Source: an uncultured Candidatus Saccharibacteria bacterium
GTDB lineage: Bacteria; Patescibacteriota; Minisyncoccia; Phycocordibacterales; UBA9973
DNA: 48,448 nucleotides
Direction of reading: 5' to 3'
Assembly (NCBI GenBank): GCA_964446475.1
Contig: CAYUOT010000001.1
Location: 1 to 48,448 of the forward strand
The translations under genes were made by a program, and so were the position numbers. This document shows positions 913 through 31,500 of this stretch, one piece after another (the stretch's first letter is position 1; each line of letters starts with the position of its first letter). The notes below the pieces were generated by a model. The model was given only the letters and a program-made list of their open reading frames with translations, made no database searches and was not told the DNA's origin.

Positions 913-962
913 CAAAATTGTGAGCCCAAAAAGAGTGCACTTCTGCACTCTTTTTCGCTTTT
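913..962. repeat. direct repeat copy 1 (tRNA-Lys trailer plus terminator)
   Basis: 50 nt. The 3' 35 nt (928-962) match 1127-1161 with one mismatch. The 5' 15 nt are diverged (CAAAATTGTGAGCCC versus CAAAAGCGTGAATTT). Confidence 0.8.
928..962 (+). terminator. intrinsic terminator after tRNA-Lys (second copy at 1127-1161)
   Basis: AAAAAGAGTGCA-CTTC-TGCACTCTTTTT hairpin with a T tract. Confidence 0.75.
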
Positions 963-1119
963 GTGAGGCGGAGCGATAATTTTGTCAGCAGACAAAATCG
1001 CGAGCCAGGGTCGTGAAATTTTTCTTTTAACAAAAAGAAAAATATTCCTGACCAAATTAACATCTTTTATAGATAAAAGAAACAAATTTTCAACAGAAAA
1101 TTATGCGTGACCAAAAGCG
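956..1119 (+). repeat. structured intergenic element, long or composite copy A
   Basis: Closing helix CGCTTTTG/CAAAAGCG. 5' end GTGAGGCGGA, then hairpin 973-1001, then GAG. Two AATTTTC-type hairpins follow. The 3' end is ATGCGTGAC. These motifs are shared with 27594-27673 and 21903-21974. Confidence 0.7.
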
Positions 1120-1161
1120 TGAATTTAAAAAGAGTGCATTTCTGCACTCTTTTTCGCTTTT
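1112..1161. repeat. direct repeat copy 2 (duplicated trailer plus terminator)
   Basis: See 913-962. Confidence 0.8.
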
Positions 1162-4832: not shown

Positions 4833-5561
4833 ATGAAAAAAATTATATTTTTAGATACAGAGACTACGGGGAATGAACCAAAAAAAGATTTCCTTTGTCA
4901 GTTGGCTTATAAAACAAACGATGAAACTTTTTGCGAACTATACAAACCCCCTGTCCAAATTCCACCTGAAGCTAGTGCTATTACTCATATCTCAAACAAG
5001 ATGGTGGCTGACAAAAACCTATTTAGTGAAAGCAAAGATTATCAAAAAATAAAAAACCTTCTTGAGGATAGTAATTCTGTCATGGTTGCTCATAACAACA
5101 AATTTGATTTTGAAATAATAAAAAAAGAAGGGATAACTCCTGCTAATACAATTTGTACCTTACGAGTTGCAAGATATTTAGACAAAAATAATATAATTCC
5201 TCAATACAAGCTTCAGTTTTTGCGATACTATCTAGACATTGATATAGAAGGAGCCCAAGCACACGATGCTCTTGGCGATGTTCTTGTGCTCGAAAAATTA
5301 TTTGAAAGGTTACTTACTAAAACAAAAGAAGAATACAATTTAAATGATGACGAAGCACTAGAAAAGATGATAGAAATTTCTTCCAAGCCTTCACTTATGA
5401 GTATGTTTAATTTCGGTAAATATAACGGAAAGACAGTGCAAGAAGTTACCAACATTGACCGCGGATATCTCGAATGGATGCTCACCCAAAAAGAACAAAA
5501 TGCAGAAAACGAAGAAGATTGGATATATACTCTTAAATATTATTTAGGAAAACTGATATAA
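4833..5561 (+). CDS. DEDDh 3'-5' exonuclease (DnaQ-like) with a C-terminal small domain
   Basis: Exo motifs FLDTETTG, AHNNKFDF and HDALGDV. The C-terminal FGKYNGKTVQEV..DRGYLEWML motif is also present. Confidence 0.85.
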   Translation: MKKIIFLDTETTGNEPKKDFLCQLAYKTNDETFCELYKPPVQIPPEASAITHISNKMVADKNLFSESKDYQKIKNLLEDSNSVMVAHNNKFDFEIIKKEGITPANTICTLRVARYLDKNNIIPQYKLQFLRYYLDIDIEGAQAHDALGDVLVLEKLFERLLTKTKEEYNLNDDEALEKMIEISSKPSLMSMFNFGKYNGKTVQEVTNIDRGYLEWMLTQKEQNAENEEDWIYTLKYYLGKLI

Positions 5562-21902: not shown

Positions 21903-21974
21903 TCAGAGGAGCTTGGGAGGCTGACGAGCCGAGCACGAGGAATTTTCTAACAAGAAAATATCCGTGTCCTCTGA
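21903..21974 (+). repeat. structured intergenic element, short copy C
   Basis: Closing helix TCAGAGGA/TCCTCTGA. The 18-nt core GGAGGCTGACGAGCCGAG (21916-21933) is identical to 27608-27625. Hairpin ATTTTC-TAACAA-GAAAAT lies at 21942-21959. Confidence 0.7.
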
Positions 21975-22004
21975 GAAGAGCTATTTCAGAAACTTTTCTA
22001 TTCT

Positions 22005-24170: not shown

Positions 24171-25028
24171 ATGGAAGATATTTACAAACTAAAAGAAATA
24201 CCAGAACTTCTAAGAGAGATTCCACAACCTCCAAAAGTTTTGTATATTAGAGGTAAAACTCCTTCACCTGATATGATATATCTTGCCGTTGTTGGATCTA
24301 GAAAATATACTTCGTATGGGAGAGATATTTGTGAACAACTTATAAAAGGCTTAAAAGATTATCCAATTGTTATTGTCTCAGGGCTTGCACTAGGTATAGA
24401 CAGTATTGCTCATAAAACAGCAATAGAAAATGGACTCACAACAATAGCCTTTCCTGGTTCTGGATTAGATAATAATGTTTTGTATCCTAGATCTAACACT
24501 AAACTAGCAGAAGATATAATAAAAAACGGAGGATGTTTAATATCAGAAATGGAGCCCAATTTTAAGGCAACACTATATTCTTTTCCTCAAAGAAATAGAT
24601 TAATGGCAGGAATTTCCAAAGCAGTACTTATTATCGAAGCTGAAGAAAAGTCAGGGACACTCATCACCGCTCGTATGGCACTCGACTACAATCGTGATGT
24701 TCTCGCTGTCCCAGGATCTGCTTTTTCTTCAAACTCAAACGGCACTAACTGGCTCATCAAACAAGGAGCAACACCTATAACAACAAGCGAGGATATACTG
24801 CTTGCATTAGGGTTTAATATAGAAAAACCAAAATTAGACGACAAGGAAAAATATGCTGACTGCGGGAAAGATGAGATGAAAATAATAGAGCTTCTCCGCG
24901 AACCAATGCCTCGCGACGAACTCATCCGAGAACTCGGAATGGGCGTTGGCTCCGCCAACGCCCTCCTCTCCATAATGGAAATTAAGGAGTTGATTAAAGA
25001 GGAAATGGGAGAGATTAAAAAAATTTAA
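24171..25028 (+). CDS. dprA: DNA-processing protein DprA (Smf)
   Basis: VVGSRKYTSYG, SGLALGIDSIAH, FPQRNRLMAG and TARMALDYNRDVLAVPG. Confidence 0.9.
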   Translation: MEDIYKLKEIPELLREIPQPPKVLYIRGKTPSPDMIYLAVVGSRKYTSYGRDICEQLIKGLKDYPIVIVSGLALGIDSIAHKTAIENGLTTIAFPGSGLDNNVLYPRSNTKLAEDIIKNGGCLISEMEPNFKATLYSFPQRNRLMAGISKAVLIIEAEEKSGTLITARMALDYNRDVLAVPGSAFSSNSNGTNWLIKQGATPITTSEDILLALGFNIEKPKLDDKEKYADCGKDEMKIIELLREPMPRDELIRELGMGVGSANALLSIMEIKELIKEEMGEIKKI

Positions 25029-25267
25029 ACTTTTCTTAAACTTTTTATGATTGAAAAGATTGCTATTATTGCCCAGATTATTTGTAGAGTGAATGCAGGC
25101 CATGCTTGTTGGTAGAAGACATTAAAACCTATCCCGATAGCTCCAAATAAATTCATCAATTGATACTTTTTACTCTCAGCACTAATTTTATTATTAGAAA
25201 CTAAAAAATACGCTAATACTACTAAAAGTGTTCCAACCCAACCAACTATTTGTGAAAATATTTCCAT
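25025..25267 (-). CDS. small (80 aa) three-TM membrane protein
   Basis: Hydrophobicity pattern. The convergent gene overlaps dprA by 4 nt. Family not assigned. Confidence 0.6.
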   Translation of the reverse strand: MEIFSQIVGWVGTLLVVLAYFLVSNNKISAESKKYQLMNLFGAIGIGFNVFYQQAWPAFTLQIIWAIIAIFSIIKSLRKV

Positions 25268-25358
25268 ATTTTAATTATCTCATTTTATATAATAATTAAC
25301 AATAACTTTTTTAAAATTTGCATAAAAATATGATTTCATGTAATACTTGGGGTTAGAT

Positions 25359-27560
25359 ATGAAATTATTAATTGTTGAGTCACCATCAAAAGCAAAAACA
25401 ATCGAGAAATATTTAGACGGCGCCTACACTGTGCGTGCGTCTGTTGGACATATCCGTGACTTACCAAAATCAAACAAAGATGCAATAGATATAAAAGGAG
25501 GATTTATCCCTCATTATGAAATTTCAAAAGGCAAAGAAAAGGTTGTTCATGATTTGAAAGCTCTCGGAGAAAAAGCAAATGAGATAATGCTTGCAACTGA
25601 CCCGGACCGTGAAGGAGAAGCTATCTCTTGGCATTTGAAAGAACTATTAGATGCAGATAAGAAAATCAAAGCTCCTATTAAAAGAGTAACCTTTCATGAA
25701 ATTACAAAAGAAGCAGTAGAAGAGGCCTTAAAAAATCCTCGTGATATAGATCAGGATTTGGTAAAAGCTCAAGAAGCAAGGCGTGTGCTTGATAGACTTG
25801 TAGGCTATGATCTCTCTGGAATTATCTGGAAGAAAGTTCGCTATGGTTTATCCGCCGGGCGAGTCCAATCCCCCGCTCTACGAATCATAATGGAAAGAGA
25901 AAGAGAAATCCGTGCATTTACACCTCTGCAATACTGGGAACTTTCTGGATTATTTGAAACTAATAAAAAAGATAGAATAAATTTATCTTGCATAGAGGAG
26001 CCTCGAGATGAAAAAGTTGTAAATAAAATACTAGAATTAGGAAGAAAAGAAAAGTGGCTTGTAAAAGATTTGAAAGCGAGTGAACAGAAGAGACAACCTC
26101 GTGCTCCATTCACTACTTCTACTCTTCAACAGACTGCGAGTACTCGTCTAGGATTTTCACCTTCACGTACTATGGGGGTGGCTCAGAAGCTTTATGAAGC
26201 AGGTCACATAACTTACATGCGTACAGATAGCACGAACTTAAGTATAGTTGCTCAGAATCAAATACTCGCTTTGGTAGAAAAGAAATATGGAAAAGAATAT
26301 GTACAATCACATGTATATAAAGCAAAATCTAAAAATGCTCAAGAAGCCCACGAAGCGATAAGGCCAACACATATAGAACAAACTCATGCGGGAATGAATG
26401 ATGAACAAAAAAATCTTTATCAACTTATTTGGGAAAGAGTTGTTTCTTCTCAAATGGCTGATGCTAAACTTCTTAAAACAAAAATAACTGCAAATATAGA
26501 GAAAGGAGAAATTCCAGACTTTACTGCCAATGGCTCACGAGTGTTATTTCCTGGTTGGCTTGTATGTGACACAGGAGCTAGAGGAGAAGATATAGAGCTT
26601 CCTGAAGTAAAAATTGGTGATGATCTTAAACTTATAGAATTAGAAAGCAAAGAAAAATTTACTGAGCCTCCAAACCGCTACACAGAAGCAGGACTTATAA
26701 AAGAGCTTGAGTCCCGAGACATCGGTCGCCCTTCTACTTATGCATCCATAATGAAAACTATTGAGGATAGGGGTTATGTCCGCAAAGATGGCAAAACCCT
26801 TTTCCCTACTGATACTGGAGATGTTGTTTCTTCATTTCTTGAAAATAATCTAGGAAATTATATAAGTGACACTTTTACGGCAGAAATGGAAGATGAGCTC
26901 GATGACATCTCAAATGGGAAAAGAGAATATTCAAAAACATTAAATGATTTTTATATTCCGTTCCAAAAAGAAATAAAAGAGAAAGACAAACTTGCAAAAG
27001 CTACAAATATGGGAGAAGCACCTAGAGATATAACATGTCCTAAATGTGATTCAAGTATGATAGTAAAACTCTCAAAAGGTGGTAAGTTTTATTCATGTAG
27101 TAAATATCCAGACTGCGAGGGAGCAAGAACAATAGAGGGTAAAGAACTTGAAGGACCAAAAGAAACTGGAGAAATATGCCCTGCTTGTGGAGATAAAAAG
27201 GGCAAAAACGGAGGAGGTAAACTTGTAATCCGAGAAGGAAGATTTGGGAGTTTTATTTCTTGCTCAAGATACCCAAAATGTAAATTTATTAAACAAGACG
27301 AAGAAGAACTAAAAAAGAAAATGACAGATATCACATGTCCGACATGTGGAAAAGGTAAAATGATGGAACGCAGGGGGCGTTTTGGAATATTTTATTCATG
27401 TAGCAATTACCCAGATTGTAAAAACGCCATAAAAGCAAAACCAACAGGAAATATTTGTGAAATGTGTCGAGCTCTTATGATGAATGGCACAAAAACAATA
27501 CCAGAGAGATGTAGTAATAATAAATGCCCAAATCATAGACCAGATAAATTAAAGAAGTAA
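25359..27560 (+). CDS. topA: DNA topoisomerase I with four C-terminal Zn-ribbon (C4) repeats
   Basis: MKLLIVESPSKAK TOPRIM, the active-site region ITYMRTDS, and four CPxC...CxxC modules. The track start (TTG 25347) is probably four codons too early. Confidence 0.95.
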   Translation: MKLLIVESPSKAKTIEKYLDGAYTVRASVGHIRDLPKSNKDAIDIKGGFIPHYEISKGKEKVVHDLKALGEKANEIMLATDPDREGEAISWHLKELLDADKKIKAPIKRVTFHEITKEAVEEALKNPRDIDQDLVKAQEARRVLDRLVGYDLSGIIWKKVRYGLSAGRVQSPALRIIMEREREIRAFTPLQYWELSGLFETNKKDRINLSCIEEPRDEKVVNKILELGRKEKWLVKDLKASEQKRQPRAPFTTSTLQQTASTRLGFSPSRTMGVAQKLYEAGHITYMRTDSTNLSIVAQNQILALVEKKYGKEYVQSHVYKAKSKNAQEAHEAIRPTHIEQTHAGMNDEQKNLYQLIWERVVSSQMADAKLLKTKITANIEKGEIPDFTANGSRVLFPGWLVCDTGARGEDIELPEVKIGDDLKLIELESKEKFTEPPNRYTEAGLIKELESRDIGRPSTYASIMKTIEDRGYVRKDGKTLFPTDTGDVVSSFLENNLGNYISDTFTAEMEDELDDISNGKREYSKTLNDFYIPFQKEIKEKDKLAKATNMGEAPRDITCPKCDSSMIVKLSKGGKFYSCSKYPDCEGARTIEGKELEGPKETGEICPACGDKKGKNGGGKLVIREGRFGSFISCSRYPKCKFIKQDEEELKKKMTDITCPTCGKGKMMERRGRFGIFYSCSNYPDCKNAIKAKPTGNICEMCRALMMNGTKTIPERCSNNKCPNHRPDKLKK

Positions 27561-27606
27561 GATATAAAAAGAACTCTAAGGATAGAGTTCTTTTGTTTTT
27601 GTGAGA
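27490..27606. repeat. direct repeat copy 1: last 71 nt of the topA CDS, terminator and GTGAGA
   Basis: 117 nt, identical to 27666-27782 except G27561 versus A27737. Period 176 nt. Confidence 0.95.
27566..27600 (+). terminator. topA intrinsic terminator (second copy at 27742-27776)
   Basis: AGAACTCT-AAGGAT-AGAGTTCT hairpin followed by TTTTGTTTTT. Confidence 0.8.
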
Positions 27607-27673
27607 CGGAGGCTGACGAGCCGAGTCGGGGTCGCACAAATTTTCAGCAGAAAATTATGTGTGACCAAAAACA
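27594..27673 (+). repeat. structured intergenic element, short copy B
   Basis: Closing helix TGTTTTTG/CAAAAACA. Order: GTGAGACGGA, hairpin GGCT-GACG-AGCC, GAG, helix GTCGCAC/GTGTGAC bracketing hairpin AATTTTC-AGCA-GAAAATT. The 3' end is ATGTGTGAC. Confidence 0.75.
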
Positions 27674-27782
27674 ATACCAGAGAGATGTAGTAATAATAAA
27701 TGCCCAAATCATAGACCAGATAAATTAAAGAAGTAAAATATAAAAAGAACTCTAAGGATAGAGTTCTTTTGTTTTTGTGAGA
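27666..27782. repeat. direct repeat copy 2 (orphan topA 3' fragment plus second terminator)
   Basis: See 27490-27606. Confidence 0.95.
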
Positions 27783-27817
27783 ATTGTCAAAATTTGTAAA
27801 ATTTTTATTTTTTATTA

Positions 27818-27829
27818 TATAATAAAAAA
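27818..27829 (+). promoter_or_regulatory. -10 element 6 nt upstream of the ATG (leaderless-type)
   Basis: TATAAT (27818-27823), 6 nt, ATG 27830. Confidence 0.5.
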
Positions 27830-29287
27830 ATGAACACAAACCTTTCAAAAATATATTCTGTGATGAAAGATGTAAATAAAGATGATAAAGCATTAATAGA
27901 AAAAGCTTATCATTTTGTAGAAAAAGCTCACAGTAAACAAGACAGAAAAAGTGGAGAACCATATTTTAACCATGTTTTTGCTACAGCTTTTAATCTTGCT
28001 GAATTGGGTATGAGTCCAATAGTTATATGTGCTGGTTTTTTGCACGATGTCTTGGAAGACACAACAATTACAGAAGAAGAATTGCAAAAAGAATTCGGTA
28101 GTGAAATAACATCACTTGTAAAAGGAGTAACCAAACTAGGAACAGTTAAATACAAAGGAATTGAAAGAAATGTTGAAAATTTAAGAAAATTCTTTGTTTC
28201 AATGGCAGAAGATTTAAGAGTTTTAGTAATAAAACTTGCAGATAGATTACACAACATAGAAACTTTAGAATATGTTAGACCAGACAAACAAAAAAGGATT
28301 GCCTTAGAAACATTGGAAGTCTATTCCCCACTGGCAAACAGACTTTCTATGGGTAAGATAAAAGGTAGATTAGAAGATGCTGCTTTTAAATTTGCATACT
28401 CCAAAGAGTATATTGAAGTTAGTAAACTATTAGAAGAGAAAAAAGATGCAAAATTAAAATATCTTTTAGAAGTTAATGATATTCTAGACAAAGAATTAAA
28501 AGAAGCTCATATAAAAAAATACACAATAAACTATCGTCAAAAACACTTATATTCTTTGTGGCTTAAATTAAAAAAATACGATATGGATATCGGTAAGATT
28601 TACGATATTATAGCTATGAGAGTTATAGTCTCATCGATTGCAGAATGTTATCATGTACTAGGAATAATACACGGAAAATGGACACCTCTGCCAAATAGAA
28701 TAAAAGACTATATTGCAACACCTAAAGCAAATGGATACCGAAGTATTCACACAACAATATTTACAGGGACAGGAGGAATTGTAGAAATACAAATAAGAAC
28801 AAAAGAAATGGACGATCAAGCGGAAAATGGTATTGCCGCTCACTTTGCTTATAAAGAAAAGAAAATTGAAGATAAACAACTAAATTGGGTAAAAGAATTA
28901 AGAGAATTAAATTTAGAAGAAAAAGATAAACCTGAAAAATTTTTGGAAACAATAAAAATTAATTTTTTTAAAAACCGAGTTTTTATATTCACCCCTATGG
29001 GAGATATTATAGACTTACCAGAAGGATCTTCTGTAATAGATTTTGCCTATGCAATTCATACAGATATTGGATACCATACACAAGGAGCTCTTGTAAACGG
29101 TAAAAATGTAGCGTTAAATACAAAATTAAAAACTCATGATATTGTAGAAATACAAACAAATAAAAATGCGAAGCCTTCATCAAAATGGCTCGATTTTGCC
29201 AAGACATCTTTAGCAAAAAGAGAAATAAATTCATATTTAAAGGAAAATTCTCTCCTATCTAAATTTCTAACATTTGGAAAAAATTAA
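27830..29287 (+). CDS. rel: RelA/SpoT-family (p)ppGpp synthetase/hydrolase, short form (HD, synthetase and TGS domains)
   Basis: HD motif (HDVLEDT), synthetase region (YRSIHTTI, VEIQIRT), TGS (IFTPMGDIIDLPEGSSVIDFAYAIH). Ends soon after TGS. Confidence 0.9.
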   Translation: MNTNLSKIYSVMKDVNKDDKALIEKAYHFVEKAHSKQDRKSGEPYFNHVFATAFNLAELGMSPIVICAGFLHDVLEDTTITEEELQKEFGSEITSLVKGVTKLGTVKYKGIERNVENLRKFFVSMAEDLRVLVIKLADRLHNIETLEYVRPDKQKRIALETLEVYSPLANRLSMGKIKGRLEDAAFKFAYSKEYIEVSKLLEEKKDAKLKYLLEVNDILDKELKEAHIKKYTINYRQKHLYSLWLKLKKYDMDIGKIYDIIAMRVIVSSIAECYHVLGIIHGKWTPLPNRIKDYIATPKANGYRSIHTTIFTGTGGIVEIQIRTKEMDDQAENGIAAHFAYKEKKIEDKQLNWVKELRELNLEEKDKPEKFLETIKINFFKNRVFIFTPMGDIIDLPEGSSVIDFAYAIHTDIGYHTQGALVNGKNVALNTKLKTHDIVEIQTNKNAKPSSKWLDFAKTSLAKREINSYLKENSLLSKFLTFGKN

Positions 29288-29293
29288 CAGAAC

Positions 29294-29325
29294 AAAAAGC
29301 TAGATTTTCCATCTAGCTTTTTGTT
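29294..29325. terminator. bidirectional terminator
   Basis: AGCTAGAT-TTTCC-ATCTAGCT hairpin flanked by A5 and T4. Confidence 0.75.
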
Positions 29326-30332
29326 TAAATTGAAAAATTATTTATATTATATAAATCATTTTCTGTTTCATTTTTTTCTTCTTCTGATCGGTCATCCATT
29401 AAATCGACATCATCGACTACACCTTCTTCTTTATCTATTAATTTTAAATTCATTCCGCCTTGAGATTCTATATATTTATCTAACATTTCAGTTTTTCCTC
29501 CACCTTTCTCTCTCTTTTCTTTTATCATCCCTAAAATTGTATGTAAGTCATCATTAGTAAAGAAATCTATGGTTATCTGCCCTCCGTTTTCTTTTTTCTC
29601 AATATGGACTCGAGTACCTAGTGTTTCTTGTAATTTTTCTTCCATTTCTGCAATTTCAGGGTCTACAATATACTCCTTTTTCCTAACTTTATCATAAGCT
29701 ATTCTTCGAGCAATTCTCTCTGCTTCTCTAACAGTTATTTTTTTAAAAACAATCTCCTTAAACAAAACCATTTGCTCTTCTGGTCTATCTGAAAGCATAA
29801 GTATTGGGCGAGTATGACCTTCACTAATTTTACCTTCAGAAAGACTATCTAATACTTCTTGTGGAAGAGCCAAAAGTCTCAAGGTGTTTGAAACATATTC
29901 ACGACTCTTGCCCACCTTTTGTCCTATTTGGCCATGAGTAAATTTAAACTCTTCTGCTAATCTCATAAAAGCCCTTGCTCTCTCCACAGGATTTAAATCT
30001 TCTCTTTGTAAGTTCTCGATGATAGCAAGCTCAAGTTTTGCCATATTGTCATCTCCAACACGAATAACTACAGGAACCTGAGCAAGACCAGCAAGCTTTG
30101 AAGCTCTAAGTCTTCTTTCTCCAGCAATAAGCTCATATTCTACGGTCATACCCTCATCTCCAACCTTTTCTATTCGAGAAACAGTAAGAGGTTGAAGTAT
30201 CCCATACTGACGAATTGAATCTGCTAAATCCTTCAAACGAGCTTCATCGAATTCTCGACGAGGCTGAAAAGGATTTGGATTAATTTTATCTACATCTACC
30301 CAAAATATTGAATTACTATAAAGTTGTGCCAT
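29325..30332 (-). CDS. parB: ParB/Spo0J partition protein with an acidic C-terminal extension
   Basis: NPFQPRREF, GILQPL, AGERRLRA and an HTH region. There is no parA on either side. Confidence 0.9.
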   Translation of the reverse strand: MAQLYSNSIFWVDVDKINPNPFQPRREFDEARLKDLADSIRQYGILQPLTVSRIEKVGDEGMTVEYELIAGERRLRASKLAGLAQVPVVIRVGDDNMAKLELAIIENLQREDLNPVERARAFMRLAEEFKFTHGQIGQKVGKSREYVSNTLRLLALPQEVLDSLSEGKISEGHTRPILMLSDRPEEQMVLFKEIVFKKITVREAERIARRIAYDKVRKKEYIVDPEIAEMEEKLQETLGTRVHIEKKENGGQITIDFFTNDDLHTILGMIKEKREKGGGKTEMLDKYIESQGGMNLKLIDKEEGVVDDVDLMDDRSEEEKNETENDLYNINNFSI

Positions 30333-30347
30333 GAACTTATTTTATCA
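30333..30347 (-). promoter_or_regulatory. extended -10 element 6 nt upstream of the ATG (leaderless-type)
   Basis: Minus strand: TGaTAAAAT (30347-30339), 6 nt, ATG (30332). Confidence 0.55.
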
Positions 30348-30369
30348 TATTTAATAAAATTAGTAAGTG

Positions 30370-30398
30370 TTGAAAAAAATATAAATATAATATATACT
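30370..30398 (+). promoter_or_regulatory. promoter of tRNA-Tyr
   Basis: TTGAAA (30370-30375), 17 nt, TATACT (30393-30398), 8 nt upstream of the tRNA 5' end. Confidence 0.65.
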
Positions 30399-30406
30399 AT
30401 TCTTAT

Positions 30407-30492
30407 GCGTCGGTGGCAGAGTGGTCAATTGCAACTGACTGTAAATCAGTCGCCTTCGGGCTACGTAAGTTCGAATCTTACCCGGCGCACCA
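30407..30492 (+). tRNA. tRNA-Tyr (anticodon GTA), long variable arm, CCA encoded
   Basis: Acceptor GCGTCGG/CCGGCGC, anticodon loop CTGTAAA, T arm GTAAG-TTCGAAT-CTTAC, 3' ACCA. Confidence 0.92.
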
Positions 30493-30494
30493 TA

Positions 30495-30529
30495 AAATAA
30501 AACATCTCAAAATGAGATGTTTTATTTTT
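30495..30529 (+). terminator. terminator after tRNA-Tyr
   Basis: AAACATCTCA/TGAGATGTTT hairpin followed by a T-rich run. Confidence 0.7.
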
Positions 30530-30570
30530 ATCCTTGATTTTTGTTATGAAATAAGAGATACTCATCATAT

Positions 30571-31500
30571 ATGTGGTTAAATTTATTAATACTTGGTGGA
30601 TCATTATTTTTATTAATCAAAGGGGCAACGCTTGCTACTAAATACGCAGCCGGAATTGCTAAAAGTTTTCGTTTATCAAAATATGTAGTCGGTTTTATAA
30701 TAGTAGCTGTAATTTCAGTTTTACCAGAGGCTCTTGTTTCTATGAATTCGGCAATAAATGGAACACCAGAATTTGGACTGGGTACACTTTTTGGCTCCAA
30801 TGTTGCTGACTTAACATTAGTATTTTTTATTATTGTTTATATATCGGGGAGAGGAATAAAAGTAGAAAGTAAAATACTAAAAAATAATATAATATATCCA
30901 TTTATTCTTCTTATTCCAATAATTCTTGGAATGGACGGATTTTACTCTAGAGTTGAAGGTGTCGGTCTTTTATTAATTGGTTCTATTTTTTATTTTCTAG
31001 CAATAAGAGGAGGAATGGCAGAAGAAGCAGAAATGGAAGTTGATAAAAAAGATAAACAAAAGAATATAGCATTTTTGCTTTTAAGTATGCTTATACTTCT
31101 AGTAGGCGCCCACTTTGCAGTTGATTCTGCAACAAAACTAGCTGAAGGTGTAGGAATAAATATGATACTTTTTGGAATGTTTACTATAGGATTAGGAACA
31201 ACAATACCAGAACTATTATTTTCATTAAAATCAATCCAGAAAGATGACGACTCTCTTGCTGTTGGAGATATATTAGGTACTGTATTAGCAGACGGAACAA
31301 TTATAGTTGGAATATTGGCAATAATATCTCCATTTTCTTTTCCTGTAAAAATAGTTTATGTAACTGGAGTATTTATGGTTATTGCTTCATTTTTACTATT
31401 TTATTTTATGAGATCAGGCAAAACTTTAACAAAAAAAGAGGCATTCCTTTTACTAGTTTTCTGGGTTTTATTTGCTCTCGTAGAGATATCTTTTAATTAA
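30571..31500 (+). CDS. Ca2+/Na+ antiporter (CaCA family, YrbG-like)
   Basis: Two alpha-repeat regions (PEALVSMNSAINGTPEFGLGTLFGSNVAD and PELLFSLKSIQKDDDSLAVGDILGTVLAD). Confidence 0.85.
   Translation: MWLNLLILGGSLFLLIKGATLATKYAAGIAKSFRLSKYVVGFIIVAVISVLPEALVSMNSAINGTPEFGLGTLFGSNVADLTLVFFIIVYISGRGIKVESKILKNNIIYPFILLIPIILGMDGFYSRVEGVGLLLIGSIFYFLAIRGGMAEEAEMEVDKKDKQKNIAFLLLSMLILLVGAHFAVDSATKLAEGVGINMILFGMFTIGLGTTIPELLFSLKSIQKDDDSLAVGDILGTVLADGTIIVGILAIISPFSFPVKIVYVTGVFMVIASFLLFYFMRSGKTLTKKEAFLLLVFWVLFALVEISFN

Follow-up and report, generated by a model that had tools for sequence, protein, structure and literature searches.

We analysed a 48,448-nt stretch of DNA (contig CAYUOT010000001.1 of assembly GCA_964446475.1, from an uncultured Candidatus Saccharibacteria bacterium; the whole stretch is called the window hereafter), in which the end of the topA gene is present twice, on either side of a 59-nt insert. 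Judged from its sequence and its covarying fold, this insert is the core of one copy of a Patescibacteria-wide and previously undescribed family of small, non-coding, structured elements. The explanation that we consider best, with a confidence somewhat better than even, is that the family inserts site-specifically, guided by a short arm complementary to the target, and that each insertion is accompanied by another copy of the gene end; this explanation names no enzyme.

A repeat search and alignment gave one pair of direct repeats at this site, 27490-27606 (H1) and 27666-27782 (H2), which are 117 nt long, 99% identical (116/117) and spaced 176 nt apart. Their sole mismatch, G27561 versus A27737, lies one base past the topA stop codon. 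H1 contains the final 71 nt of the topA coding sequence (CDS) including its TAA (tail 1), a terminator-like hairpin and the tail GTTTTTGTGAGA; H2 repeats the tail open reading frame (ORF; TKTIPERCSNNKCPNHRPDKLKK and stop; tail 2) and a second terminator-like hairpin, and is followed by a promoter-like site for rel and then by rel. No second match to the insert (27607-27665) was found within the window at up to 3 mismatches. The original prediction, made from the letters of the sequence, had described this near-perfect 117-bp duplication around a 59-nt insert, as well as the order of an intact topA, the element and a second tail with a second terminator upstream of rel, and the alignment and the gene annotation bear out both. 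Its remark that the duplication far exceeds the target-site duplication of a classical transposase also holds, here and across copies of the family (13-117 nt). An 8-nt inverted repeat at the repeat boundaries had been noticed too. It is real and coincides with the ends, but its length was understated: CACAAAAACAA (27488-27498) pairs with TTGTTTTTGTG (27593-27603) over 11 bp, starting 2 nt upstream of the direct repeat. Rather than being incidental, it is one instance of a covarying arm-junction helix of 11-14 bp that is conserved across lineages.

BLAST of the insert against the window revealed two diverged relatives, at ~960-1125 (downstream of tRNA-Lys) and ~21905-21978 (upstream of dus). 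The relatives have the 18-mer GGAGGCTGACGAGCCGAG in common, and a search for this sequence, with one genome per GTDB species, gave more than 117 exact matches, which is a lower bound. Among the matches listed, almost all fall in Patescibacteria (Paceibacterota, Nomura-, Zambryski-, Kaiser- and Taylorbacteria, and bins labelled Saccharibacteria), often with several element copies per genome, while about ten in GC-rich genomes outside the candidate phyla radiation (CPR) look like chance. An alignment of 85 copies yielded a common fold, which consists of a 3-bp helix (P2) around an invariant GGA/GA internal loop and a 4-bp hairpin (P3), a GG(G) linker, and a 16-bp AU-rich hairpin (P4) with an ANCA loop. 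In this alignment, 95.4% of the cells are paired, versus 79% in column shuffles and 34-49% in slid registers, and 16 of the 23 pairs show compensatory changes. One P4 position is a G.U pair in 67/85 copies, and such a conserved G.U pair indicates that the folded strand is the + strand; the element would be active as a folded single strand of this sense, most likely RNA. A covariance model built from the 85-copy alignment found 151 copies in 666 kb of fetched loci and three in the window, all on the + strand (copy B, the insert, 91 bits; copy C, 54 bits; copy A, 28 bits). Searches against Rfam, of the window and 15 loci at the gathering threshold and of 27400-27900 and a full-length copy at E<=10, returned only tRNAs, rRNA and RNase P, and a full-text literature search by sequence and by topic gave no description of the element or of such a motif.

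Direct repeats stand on both sides in ~30/120 copies and range from 13 to 117 nt, those of the window being the longest; a more sensitive alignment lengthens several flanking repeats to 50-90 nt. The downstream repeat starts right after the last hairpin, which is P4 or, in longer copies, an additional P4-like one, and the upstream boundary varies. What is repeated is usually recognizable as part of a conserved gene: the segment from the tRNA T-loop (GGTT^CRA..., the caret marking the junction) to just past the tRNA 3' end in L052, L084, L037, L044, L024, L004 and L015, the first ~25 nt of a tRNA with its upstream region in L035, L066, L090, L095 and L076, and the last five rplK codons in nine species (for example L028, L033 and L091). 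The junctions follow the consensus GG[CT][AT]^C[AG]A, which is found in the tRNA T-loop, at a tRNA 3' end and in the topA codons for GTKTIPERC. Clustering of the ORFs around the 120 copies gave no recurrent reverse transcriptase (RT), integrase or transposase, only housekeeping neighbours (rplK, nusG, infB and others), and a search for tRNA genes that the element splits, with no intact copy upstream of them, found none. A further locus, L076 (7650-8000, - strand), carries a tandem of two identical 157-nt units, each made of 23 nt of the tRNA 5' end, the element and a 44-nt spacer, before the intact tRNA. This array shows that a unit of repeat and element can amplify, by unequal crossing-over or repeated integration.

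The same topA codon is occupied in other lineages as well. A pattern that combined the core with the K-T-I codons matched three metagenome contigs, and from these contigs, L114 and look-ups of TopA homologues, the element was located between GGCA and C of the codons G-T^K-T-I-P-E-R-C in at least five lineages. These are L114/L130, whose TopA is ~70% identical to that of the window's relatives; L131, L133 and L135, which are one and the same lineage (P0024); L137/L138 (P0026); L141 (P0038), whose element belongs to the long-P3 subfamily; and L132 (element at 493-561). Two element subfamilies occupy the same topA codon. The layout in each lineage is topA body, tail 1, stop, a short 5' module, core, P4, tail 2 and stop; a native-looking terminator follows tail 2, not tail 1, in L141 and L130, and in L141 the rel promoter does so too. 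The 5' module always ends in an arm whose sequence gives, in reverse complement, the junction (CA^C plus 8-12 nt), including 2 nt of the upstream body. In the window, the arm TTGTTTTTGTG faces the junction CACAAAAACAA; the corresponding pairs are AATAGTTTTTGTG and CACAAAAACTATT in L131/L141, GATAGTCTTCGTG and CACGAAGACTAT(T/C) in L130, where the last base is mismatched, and GGATTGTCTTTGTG and CACAAAGACAATCC in L132. Arm and junction change together at several positions across lineages, in a compensatory manner. Comparable arms were seen at other targets, matching the T-loop in L052 and L044 and the rplK end in L033.

The minimum free energy (MFE) fold of 27484-27690 consists of the long-range arm-junction helix, then P2-P3 and P4 (-53.9 kcal/mol, z=-6.1). 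Copies of the subfamily that lacks an extra 5' hairpin have a further pairing option, between the arm and the bases immediately past P4, which closes a three-way junction; the longest adjacent helix there has a mean length of 5.2 bp, compared with 3.6-4.1 bp in controls. As a side effect on annotation, gene callers place a 53-aa ORF over the element and tail 2, in a frame other than that of topA, in L133 (2960-3121) and L135 (3011-3172); this gene call is probably spurious and due to the element.

A question raised by any such repeat is whether the two copies stand on one molecule. An assembly artefact or a collapsed mixture of strains might be suspected, as the window is a contig of a metagenome-assembled genome (MAG) and one contig from a sister sample has a single copy, but we consider this explanation very improbable. 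The Logan contigs L001 and L120 (SRR8925824) are 100% identical to the window, and L001 starts at window position 27753, which is the first 31-mer that reaches the base after H2. A de Bruijn assembler breaks a contig where the end of a repeat has two continuations. This independent contig, assembled from the matching sample, thus ends exactly where the repeat does, as at the branch of a true repeat, and both junctions are therefore present in the reads. Moreover, one single-nucleotide polymorphism (SNP) separates the copies, and the same architecture with diverged copies was assembled in at least six other datasets.

The contig with the single copy, L002, comes from a second sample of the same study (SRR8925826) and runs from topA into rel with one H, being exactly 176 nt shorter. 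Its strain is very close to that of the window, with 3 mismatches in 2683 nt upstream of the site and 43 in 3063 nt downstream. The four nearest TopA relatives are element-free: P0002 / L121 (88% TopA identity, topA-rel spacer of 57 nt), P0004 / L124 (87%, 34 nt), P0059 / L142 (84%, 43 nt) and P0119 / L144 (82%, 69 nt). Because the single-copy allele exists in L002 and all four of these relatives are empty, the two-copy state is young and polymorphic. The suggestion of a recent event is therefore upheld. In the comparison of L002 with the window (24924-30728), the downstream SNPs lie in three tight clusters (28118-28192, 29919-30168 and 30596-30690), in rel, parB and beyond; such mosaic tracts are a signature of active homologous recombination in the population.

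The single-copy allele is not simply like the sites of the relatives. Both H copies and the single-copy allele end in the arm followed by GAGA, which is absent from all four element-free relatives, and against L142 the single-copy allele has ~35 extra nt at this place; it may thus have arisen by reversion or retain an old footprint, instead of being a site that never held an element. Neither the SNP between the copies nor the strain divergence around the site was informative about polarity. Two scenarios would fit these data, namely an older footprint into which a new 176-nt unit (core, P4 and H, or H, core and P4) recombined, or reversion by recombination between H1 and H2. Either way, the 176-nt unit of topA tail and element was gained or lost recently, by recombination within H, at a repeatedly targeted site.

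The fate of the second tail was assessed in the lineages with diverged copies. H1 and H2 differ by 13 nt in L131, 19 nt in L137 and 21 nt in L132, and the nonsynonymous codons number 0 against 9.7 expected if neutral, 4 against 13.3 and 3 against 13.0, respectively (P<1e-5 in each). The topA frame is intact in the second tails of L133 (2869-3135), L137 (3635-3908), L141 (3376-3648) and L132; tail 2 of L130 has a premature stop (CCA to TGA). At a conserved serine codon in L133, L137 and L141, tail 1 has AGT, like the window's clade, and tail 2 has TCA, like other element-less relatives. This difference in the serine codon, and the divergence of the tails, would be expected of an element that brings along the topA tail of a different lineage and displaces the one already there.

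L133 and L137 can be compared along the whole site, since they have the entire arrangement in common, their TopA proteins are 96% identical and the identities of the segments look vertical: 84-88% in the topA body, 88.8% in tail 1, 90% in the 5' module, 96.6% from the core to P4, 82.6% in tail 2 (54/59 in its conserved block) and 60% in the intergenic spacer downstream. Between the two, tail 2 has 9 synonymous versus 4 nonsynonymous codon changes, and coding-type constraint on it seems to have persisted past the insertion. Possible causes are that recombination with strains lacking the element frequently overwrites it, that excision is frequent and turns tail 2 into the working tail, or removal of tail 1 and the element at the RNA level. 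Readthrough from topA, or an ORF running in frame into tail 2, was considered and excluded: the copies lie 176-178 nt apart and are hence out of frame, and simple readthrough is ruled out by a TGA before tail 2 in the topA frame together with the phase of tail 2 relative to tail 1. The second tail had been called an orphan; the stop in L130 agrees with that label, whereas H2 in L133 and L137 has been kept as conserved as coding sequence, so the label may be wrong.

Site-specific insertion by the family, as favoured above, would proceed as follows. The element would enter short conserved sequences near the ends of conserved genes, and each insertion would bring a second copy of the segment from the insertion point to beyond the gene end, giving gene, tail 1, element and tail 2 with the gene intact. 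Pairing of the arm with the junction would select the site and join both ends of the unit of tail and element, and this unit would move together with a tail. In the window, the 176-nt unit may have recombined into the resident tail, in a Campbell-like or homologous manner, within a naturally transformable, recombining population that encodes DprA (dprA adjoins topA in the gene annotation); alternatively, the core may have been inserted with in-situ copying of 111-117 nt. As the first event, we regard Campbell-like integration of tail and element as about twice as likely as an in-situ copy made by staggered breaks or template switching at the GAGA and CAAAA microhomologies. The original prediction had likewise named the integration of a molecule carrying the homology, and this finds support in the diverged topA tails of L131/L133, L137, L141 and L132 and in the native terminator after the second copy in L141 and L130; in-situ duplication and template switching stay candidates beside cassette integration. 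The nature of the intermediate and of the enzyme we can only infer. Several findings weigh against arm-guided insertion of a cassette. About 60% of the copies have no detectable flanking duplication, and the subfamily that lacks the extra 5' hairpin is the only one with a clear adjacent P1 helix. The window, which holds housekeeping genes only, encodes no recombinase, RT or transposase, and none recurs beside the copies. The arm and GAGA in both H copies and in the single-copy allele are not explained by a simple cassette entering a naive site, unless there was an older footprint or an in-situ event. One SNP cannot set the direction of the polymorphism (insertion, or deletion between H1 and H2), the short allele having G like H1. 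Finally, the arrangement in L133 and L137 looks vertical and yet H2 is conserved (82.6% versus 60%), which a pure model of a displaced native tail does not predict.

Two other explanations address some of these points. The core alone could have been inserted by copying at the target, through wide staggered breaks, template switching or target-primed (reverse) transcription, with microhomology joins at GAGA/GTGAGA on the left and C/CAAAA on the right and with gap repair duplicating the 111-117 nt between the breaks. This would account for the 116/117 identity of H1 and H2 and for the native-looking terminator sequence in both, and the left junction overlaps the usual 5' junction (..GAGA^CGGAGG) by 4-6 nt, as it similarly does in L035, L095 and L099. 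The lengths of the duplications (13-117 nt), with a constant 3' end and a variable 5' end, also resemble the products of target-primed reverse transcription (TPRT), and insertion with long target duplication in the absence of mobility genes is documented in other bacteria (PMC2853133). However, the almost exclusively synonymous divergence of the tails in L131, L137 and L132 would be left unexplained unless later recombination is added, as would the fact that in L131, L141 and L130 the duplication extends to the stop codon or barely beyond it; there is no RT gene in the window or recurrent near the copies, and no A-tail, and reuse of exactly the same codon requires site recognition anyway. We therefore regard in-situ duplication as a rather unlikely account. 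Still less probable, in our view, is that tail 1 and the element form an intron-like or excisable unit, whose loss from the RNA (or, often, from the DNA) would connect the topA body to tail 2; the arm-junction helix would bring the unit ends together, and both tails would be used and be under coding selection. This would fit the intact topA frame of H2 with almost only synonymous changes in L131, L137 and L132, the intact alternative tail in L141, and the conservation of H2 between L133 and L137 (54/59 in the conserved block and 82.6% over the whole tail, against 60% in neighbouring intergenic DNA). The arm, moreover, reaches 2 nt across the 5' junction and also fits the beginning of tail 2, as an internal guide would, and the targets are highly conserved sites in essential genes, as with homing introns. 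On the other side, no ribozyme or intron family known to Rfam matches, the element is very small, H1 is under coding constraint too, H2 of L130 has its premature stop, and the search for an element-interrupted tRNA without an upstream intact copy found none.

We also entertain, as a doubtful possibility, that gene tail and element together constitute a new, self-contained CPR homing element: a folded strand of ~150-180 nt acting as a nucleic-acid-guided recombination or splicing device, with both topA tails functional. A three-way junction closed by a programmable arm-target helix would join the ends and direct insertion at conserved sites of essential genes, and possibly excision or splicing from them, without an element-encoded protein, the spare gene end serving as insurance.

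The features of the window on which the above is based, and the two other copies, are collected in Table 1.

Table 1. Positions of the topA-rel site features and of the element copies in the window
Feature	Position	Strand	Basis
Copy A, long-P3 subfamily with extra P4-like hairpin (1083-1105), downstream of tRNA-Lys (840-913)	960-1125	+	Covariance-model match 985-1060, 27.6 bits
Copy C, closed by stem CAGAGGA/TCCTCTG, no flanking duplication, intergenic upstream of dus	21905-21978	+	Covariance-model match, 54.5 bits
topA, intact, 733 aa, ends in H1; identical protein entry P0001	25359-27560	+	Pfam Toprim, Topoisom_bac, Zn_ribbon_Top1 (three Zn ribbons), translation; protein search
Junction CACAAAAACAA, T-K-T-I codons in the conserved motif GTKTIPERC; forms the long-range helix, as its 5' strand, with arm 27593-27603; duplication start 27490 (GGCA^C)	27488-27498	+	Sequence; MFE fold
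H1: topA tail, stop codon, terminator-like hairpin, arm, GAGA	27490-27606	+	Repeat search
Terminator-like hairpin 1, 12-bp stem then T-rich tail	27567-27594	+	Promoter/terminator scan
5' arm TTGTTTTTGTG, reverse complement of 27488-27498, followed by junction AGA (27604-27606); also pairs over 9 nt with H2 start (27666-27674)	27593-27603	+	Sequence, MFE fold
59-nt insert, element core (copy B)	27607-27665	+	Covariance-model match 27603-27673, 91.3 bits, E=9.5e-26; fold z=-4.9
Core P2, enclosing GGA/GA internal loop and hairpin P3 (27611-27622)	27605-27607 with 27625-27627	+	Covariation on 85 copies
Core GG linker (27628-27629), then long AU-rich hairpin P4, loop AGCA	27630-27666	+	Covariation on 85 copies
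H2: second topA tail, stop codon, terminator-like hairpin, arm, GAGA; difference A27737	27666-27782	+	Repeat search, alignment
Terminator-like hairpin 2	27743-27770	+	Promoter/terminator scan
rel promoter-like site TTGTAA-18-TATAAT, outside the duplication	27794-27823	+	Promoter/terminator scan
rel (HD_4, RelA_SpoT, TGS), gene downstream	27830-29287	+	Pfam

Copy A is flanked by a diverged duplication of ~50 nt of the tRNA-Lys trailer and terminator (~906-958 versus 1112-1161), which starts directly after the tRNA-Lys 3' end (GGGGCA^CAAAA); the arm of copy A, CGCTTTTG, has its pairing partner CAAAAGCG downstream of the element. Copy C lies in a 133-nt spacer between an FtsQ/POTRA-like gene and dus, on the opposite strand to both; its 7-bp closing stem is formed by flanking sequence, and the copy is identical in the Logan contig L120. 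Elsewhere, dense clusters with nested or compound forms were seen in L011, L099, L035, L024, L032, L047 and L088, with up to 6 model matches in 2.4 kb and extra hairpins in P4. A preceding variant unit, CGGAG-CGUGACGACG-CGAG, and further conserved 5' modules, such as TTGTCATCC-hairpin-GTGAG-hairpin-GCAAGA, are found in the same genomes. Viral contigs gave one chance match and one phage contig with only the P2-P3 module: L139 (IMGVR_UViG_3300025122_000042), which has GGCGG-GGAGGCTGACGAGCCGAG-CCG at ~5117-5134 without the AU-rich P4 and is rich in tRNA genes (14 in 14 kb). GC-rich element variants stand beside tRNA 3' ends in L004 and L074 (DAOLWP01, a bin labelled Pacearchaeota archaeon, DPANN); either the archaeal label of this bin may be wrong, or the family may extend outside the bacteria.

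In CPR bacteria (Patescibacteria), whose tiny genomes hold few recognised mobile elements, the present repeats are abundant across the phylum and protein-less, and they can enter essential genes (topA, tRNAs and rplK) without inactivating them. The family also offers a concrete, repeatedly sampled model for the poorly understood process of insertion with long target duplication. The covarying arm-junction helix suggests that the site is chosen with the guidance of a nucleic acid and, if the machinery were found, the system could be a compact programmable one for insertion, while the coding-type conservation of the second tail may point to tail switching at the RNA level or, frequently, at the DNA level. 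In practice, the repeats interrupt assemblies of short reads at the ends of genes and give rise to small ORFs that are spurious.

In comparison with known systems, several classes of element can be set aside. Classical insertion sequences (IS) and miniature inverted-repeat transposable elements (MITEs) make a fixed, short duplication (2-14 bp), unlike the 13-117 nt found here; the ends of the present element are not inverted repeats of each other, its arm pairs with the flanking target, and no transposase is present in the window or recurrent near copies. The palindrome-associated transposable elements (PATE) derived from IS200/IS605 are a less clear case and are not set aside: they have subterminal hairpins, insert 3' of a tetra- or pentanucleotide without a target duplication and have TnpA in the genome, and here hairpins and a preferred junction motif exist, as do long duplications. 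A group II intron, including class C, would have domains I-VI with domain V, 5' GUGYG and 3' AY ends and at least ~400 nt; the element has 59-110 nt and no Rfam match. For self-cleaving ribozymes (hammerhead, twister, pistol, hatchet and hepatitis delta virus-like), there was no Rfam 15 match in the window or in full-length copies, and the place of CUGACGAG is a hairpin loop rather than a three-way junction. By eye, CUGACGAG and GAGCCGAG had invited readings as hammerhead, group II domain V, kink-turn or box C/D motifs, and the covariation of P2 and P4 puts those bases in a loop or stem. A diversity-generating retroelement is rejected, as the single G/A difference is outside the CDS, the window has no RT and the repeats extend past the CDS; TIGR-Tas arrays are tandem 36-nt guide units beside Tas genes, with no match to the element.

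Other systems have features in common with the family. Small, non-autonomous, structured elements with duplications of variable length, a constant 3' end and a variable 5' end are known among short interspersed nuclear elements (SINEs), as products of non-long-terminal-repeat (non-LTR) retroposition, and among retrozymes, and as in these, the fold itself joins the ends of the unit, which would allow circularisation. Variable duplications and microhomology at the junctions, as expected of TPRT, were found; an A-rich or simple-repeat tail and an RT were not, as H2 directly follows the last hairpin and no RT is encoded in the window or near the copies. The family further differs from SINEs and retrozymes in having no recognised self-cleaving ribozyme and in being bacterial. 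Group II introns (exon- and intron-binding sites, EBS/IBS), IS200/IS605 (guide tetranucleotides) and IS110 (bridge RNA) resemble it in carrying an internal target-complementary sequence that changes with the target, and in hairpin-rich ends that are recognised in single-stranded form; a position after terminators is a further trait of class C group II introns. Here, in contrast, no RNA family, intron domain or associated protein matches, and those elements do not duplicate 20-117 nt of target.

The closest likenesses concern the outcome of insertion. Integrative elements (phages, integrative and conjugative elements (ICEs) and genomic islands) that carry a replacement gene end in attP produce the same order of gene body, element-borne end, element and displaced native end; their repeats run from the crossover, often in the T-loop, to the gene 3' end, and the copies may diverge while both remain gene-like. 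Correspondingly, the repeats of the family run from the crossover to the gene end, and the copy on the element side reconstitutes the gene (topA, tRNA T-loop and rplK). Unlike those elements, the present one is non-coding, 2-3 orders of magnitude smaller and without an integrase (no tyrosine or serine integrase is encoded in the window, whose insert has 59 nt, or recurs at 117 loci), its repeats can be 70% diverged, and the site appears to be recognised by nucleic-acid pairing. Insertion with long target duplication, in turn, was described by Nobusato, Furuta and Kobayashi for restriction-modification units, mostly in naturally competent bacteria, with repeats of 46-423 bp and no mobility genes, and was recognized by direct repeats of >30 bp that each align with a single copy in a related genome (PMC2853133). 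The window has repeats of 117 nt, a single copy in L002, a length difference of 176 nt and no mobility genes, and the two systems are alike in their long, variable repeats (46-423 bp there, 13-117 nt here), which often lie over a gene 3' end. The cargo there, however, is kilobase-sized, protein-coding and not a repeated family, whereas here it is a multi-copy, structured, non-coding element of 59-110 nt with an arm that matches the site, and the same conserved sites are reused. Overall, our comparison indicates that the outcome matches both insertion with long target duplication and the integrative elements that carry a gene end, and that the differences from both lie in the tiny, structured, protein-less, multi-copy cargo, the covarying arm and the reuse of sites across the superphylum.

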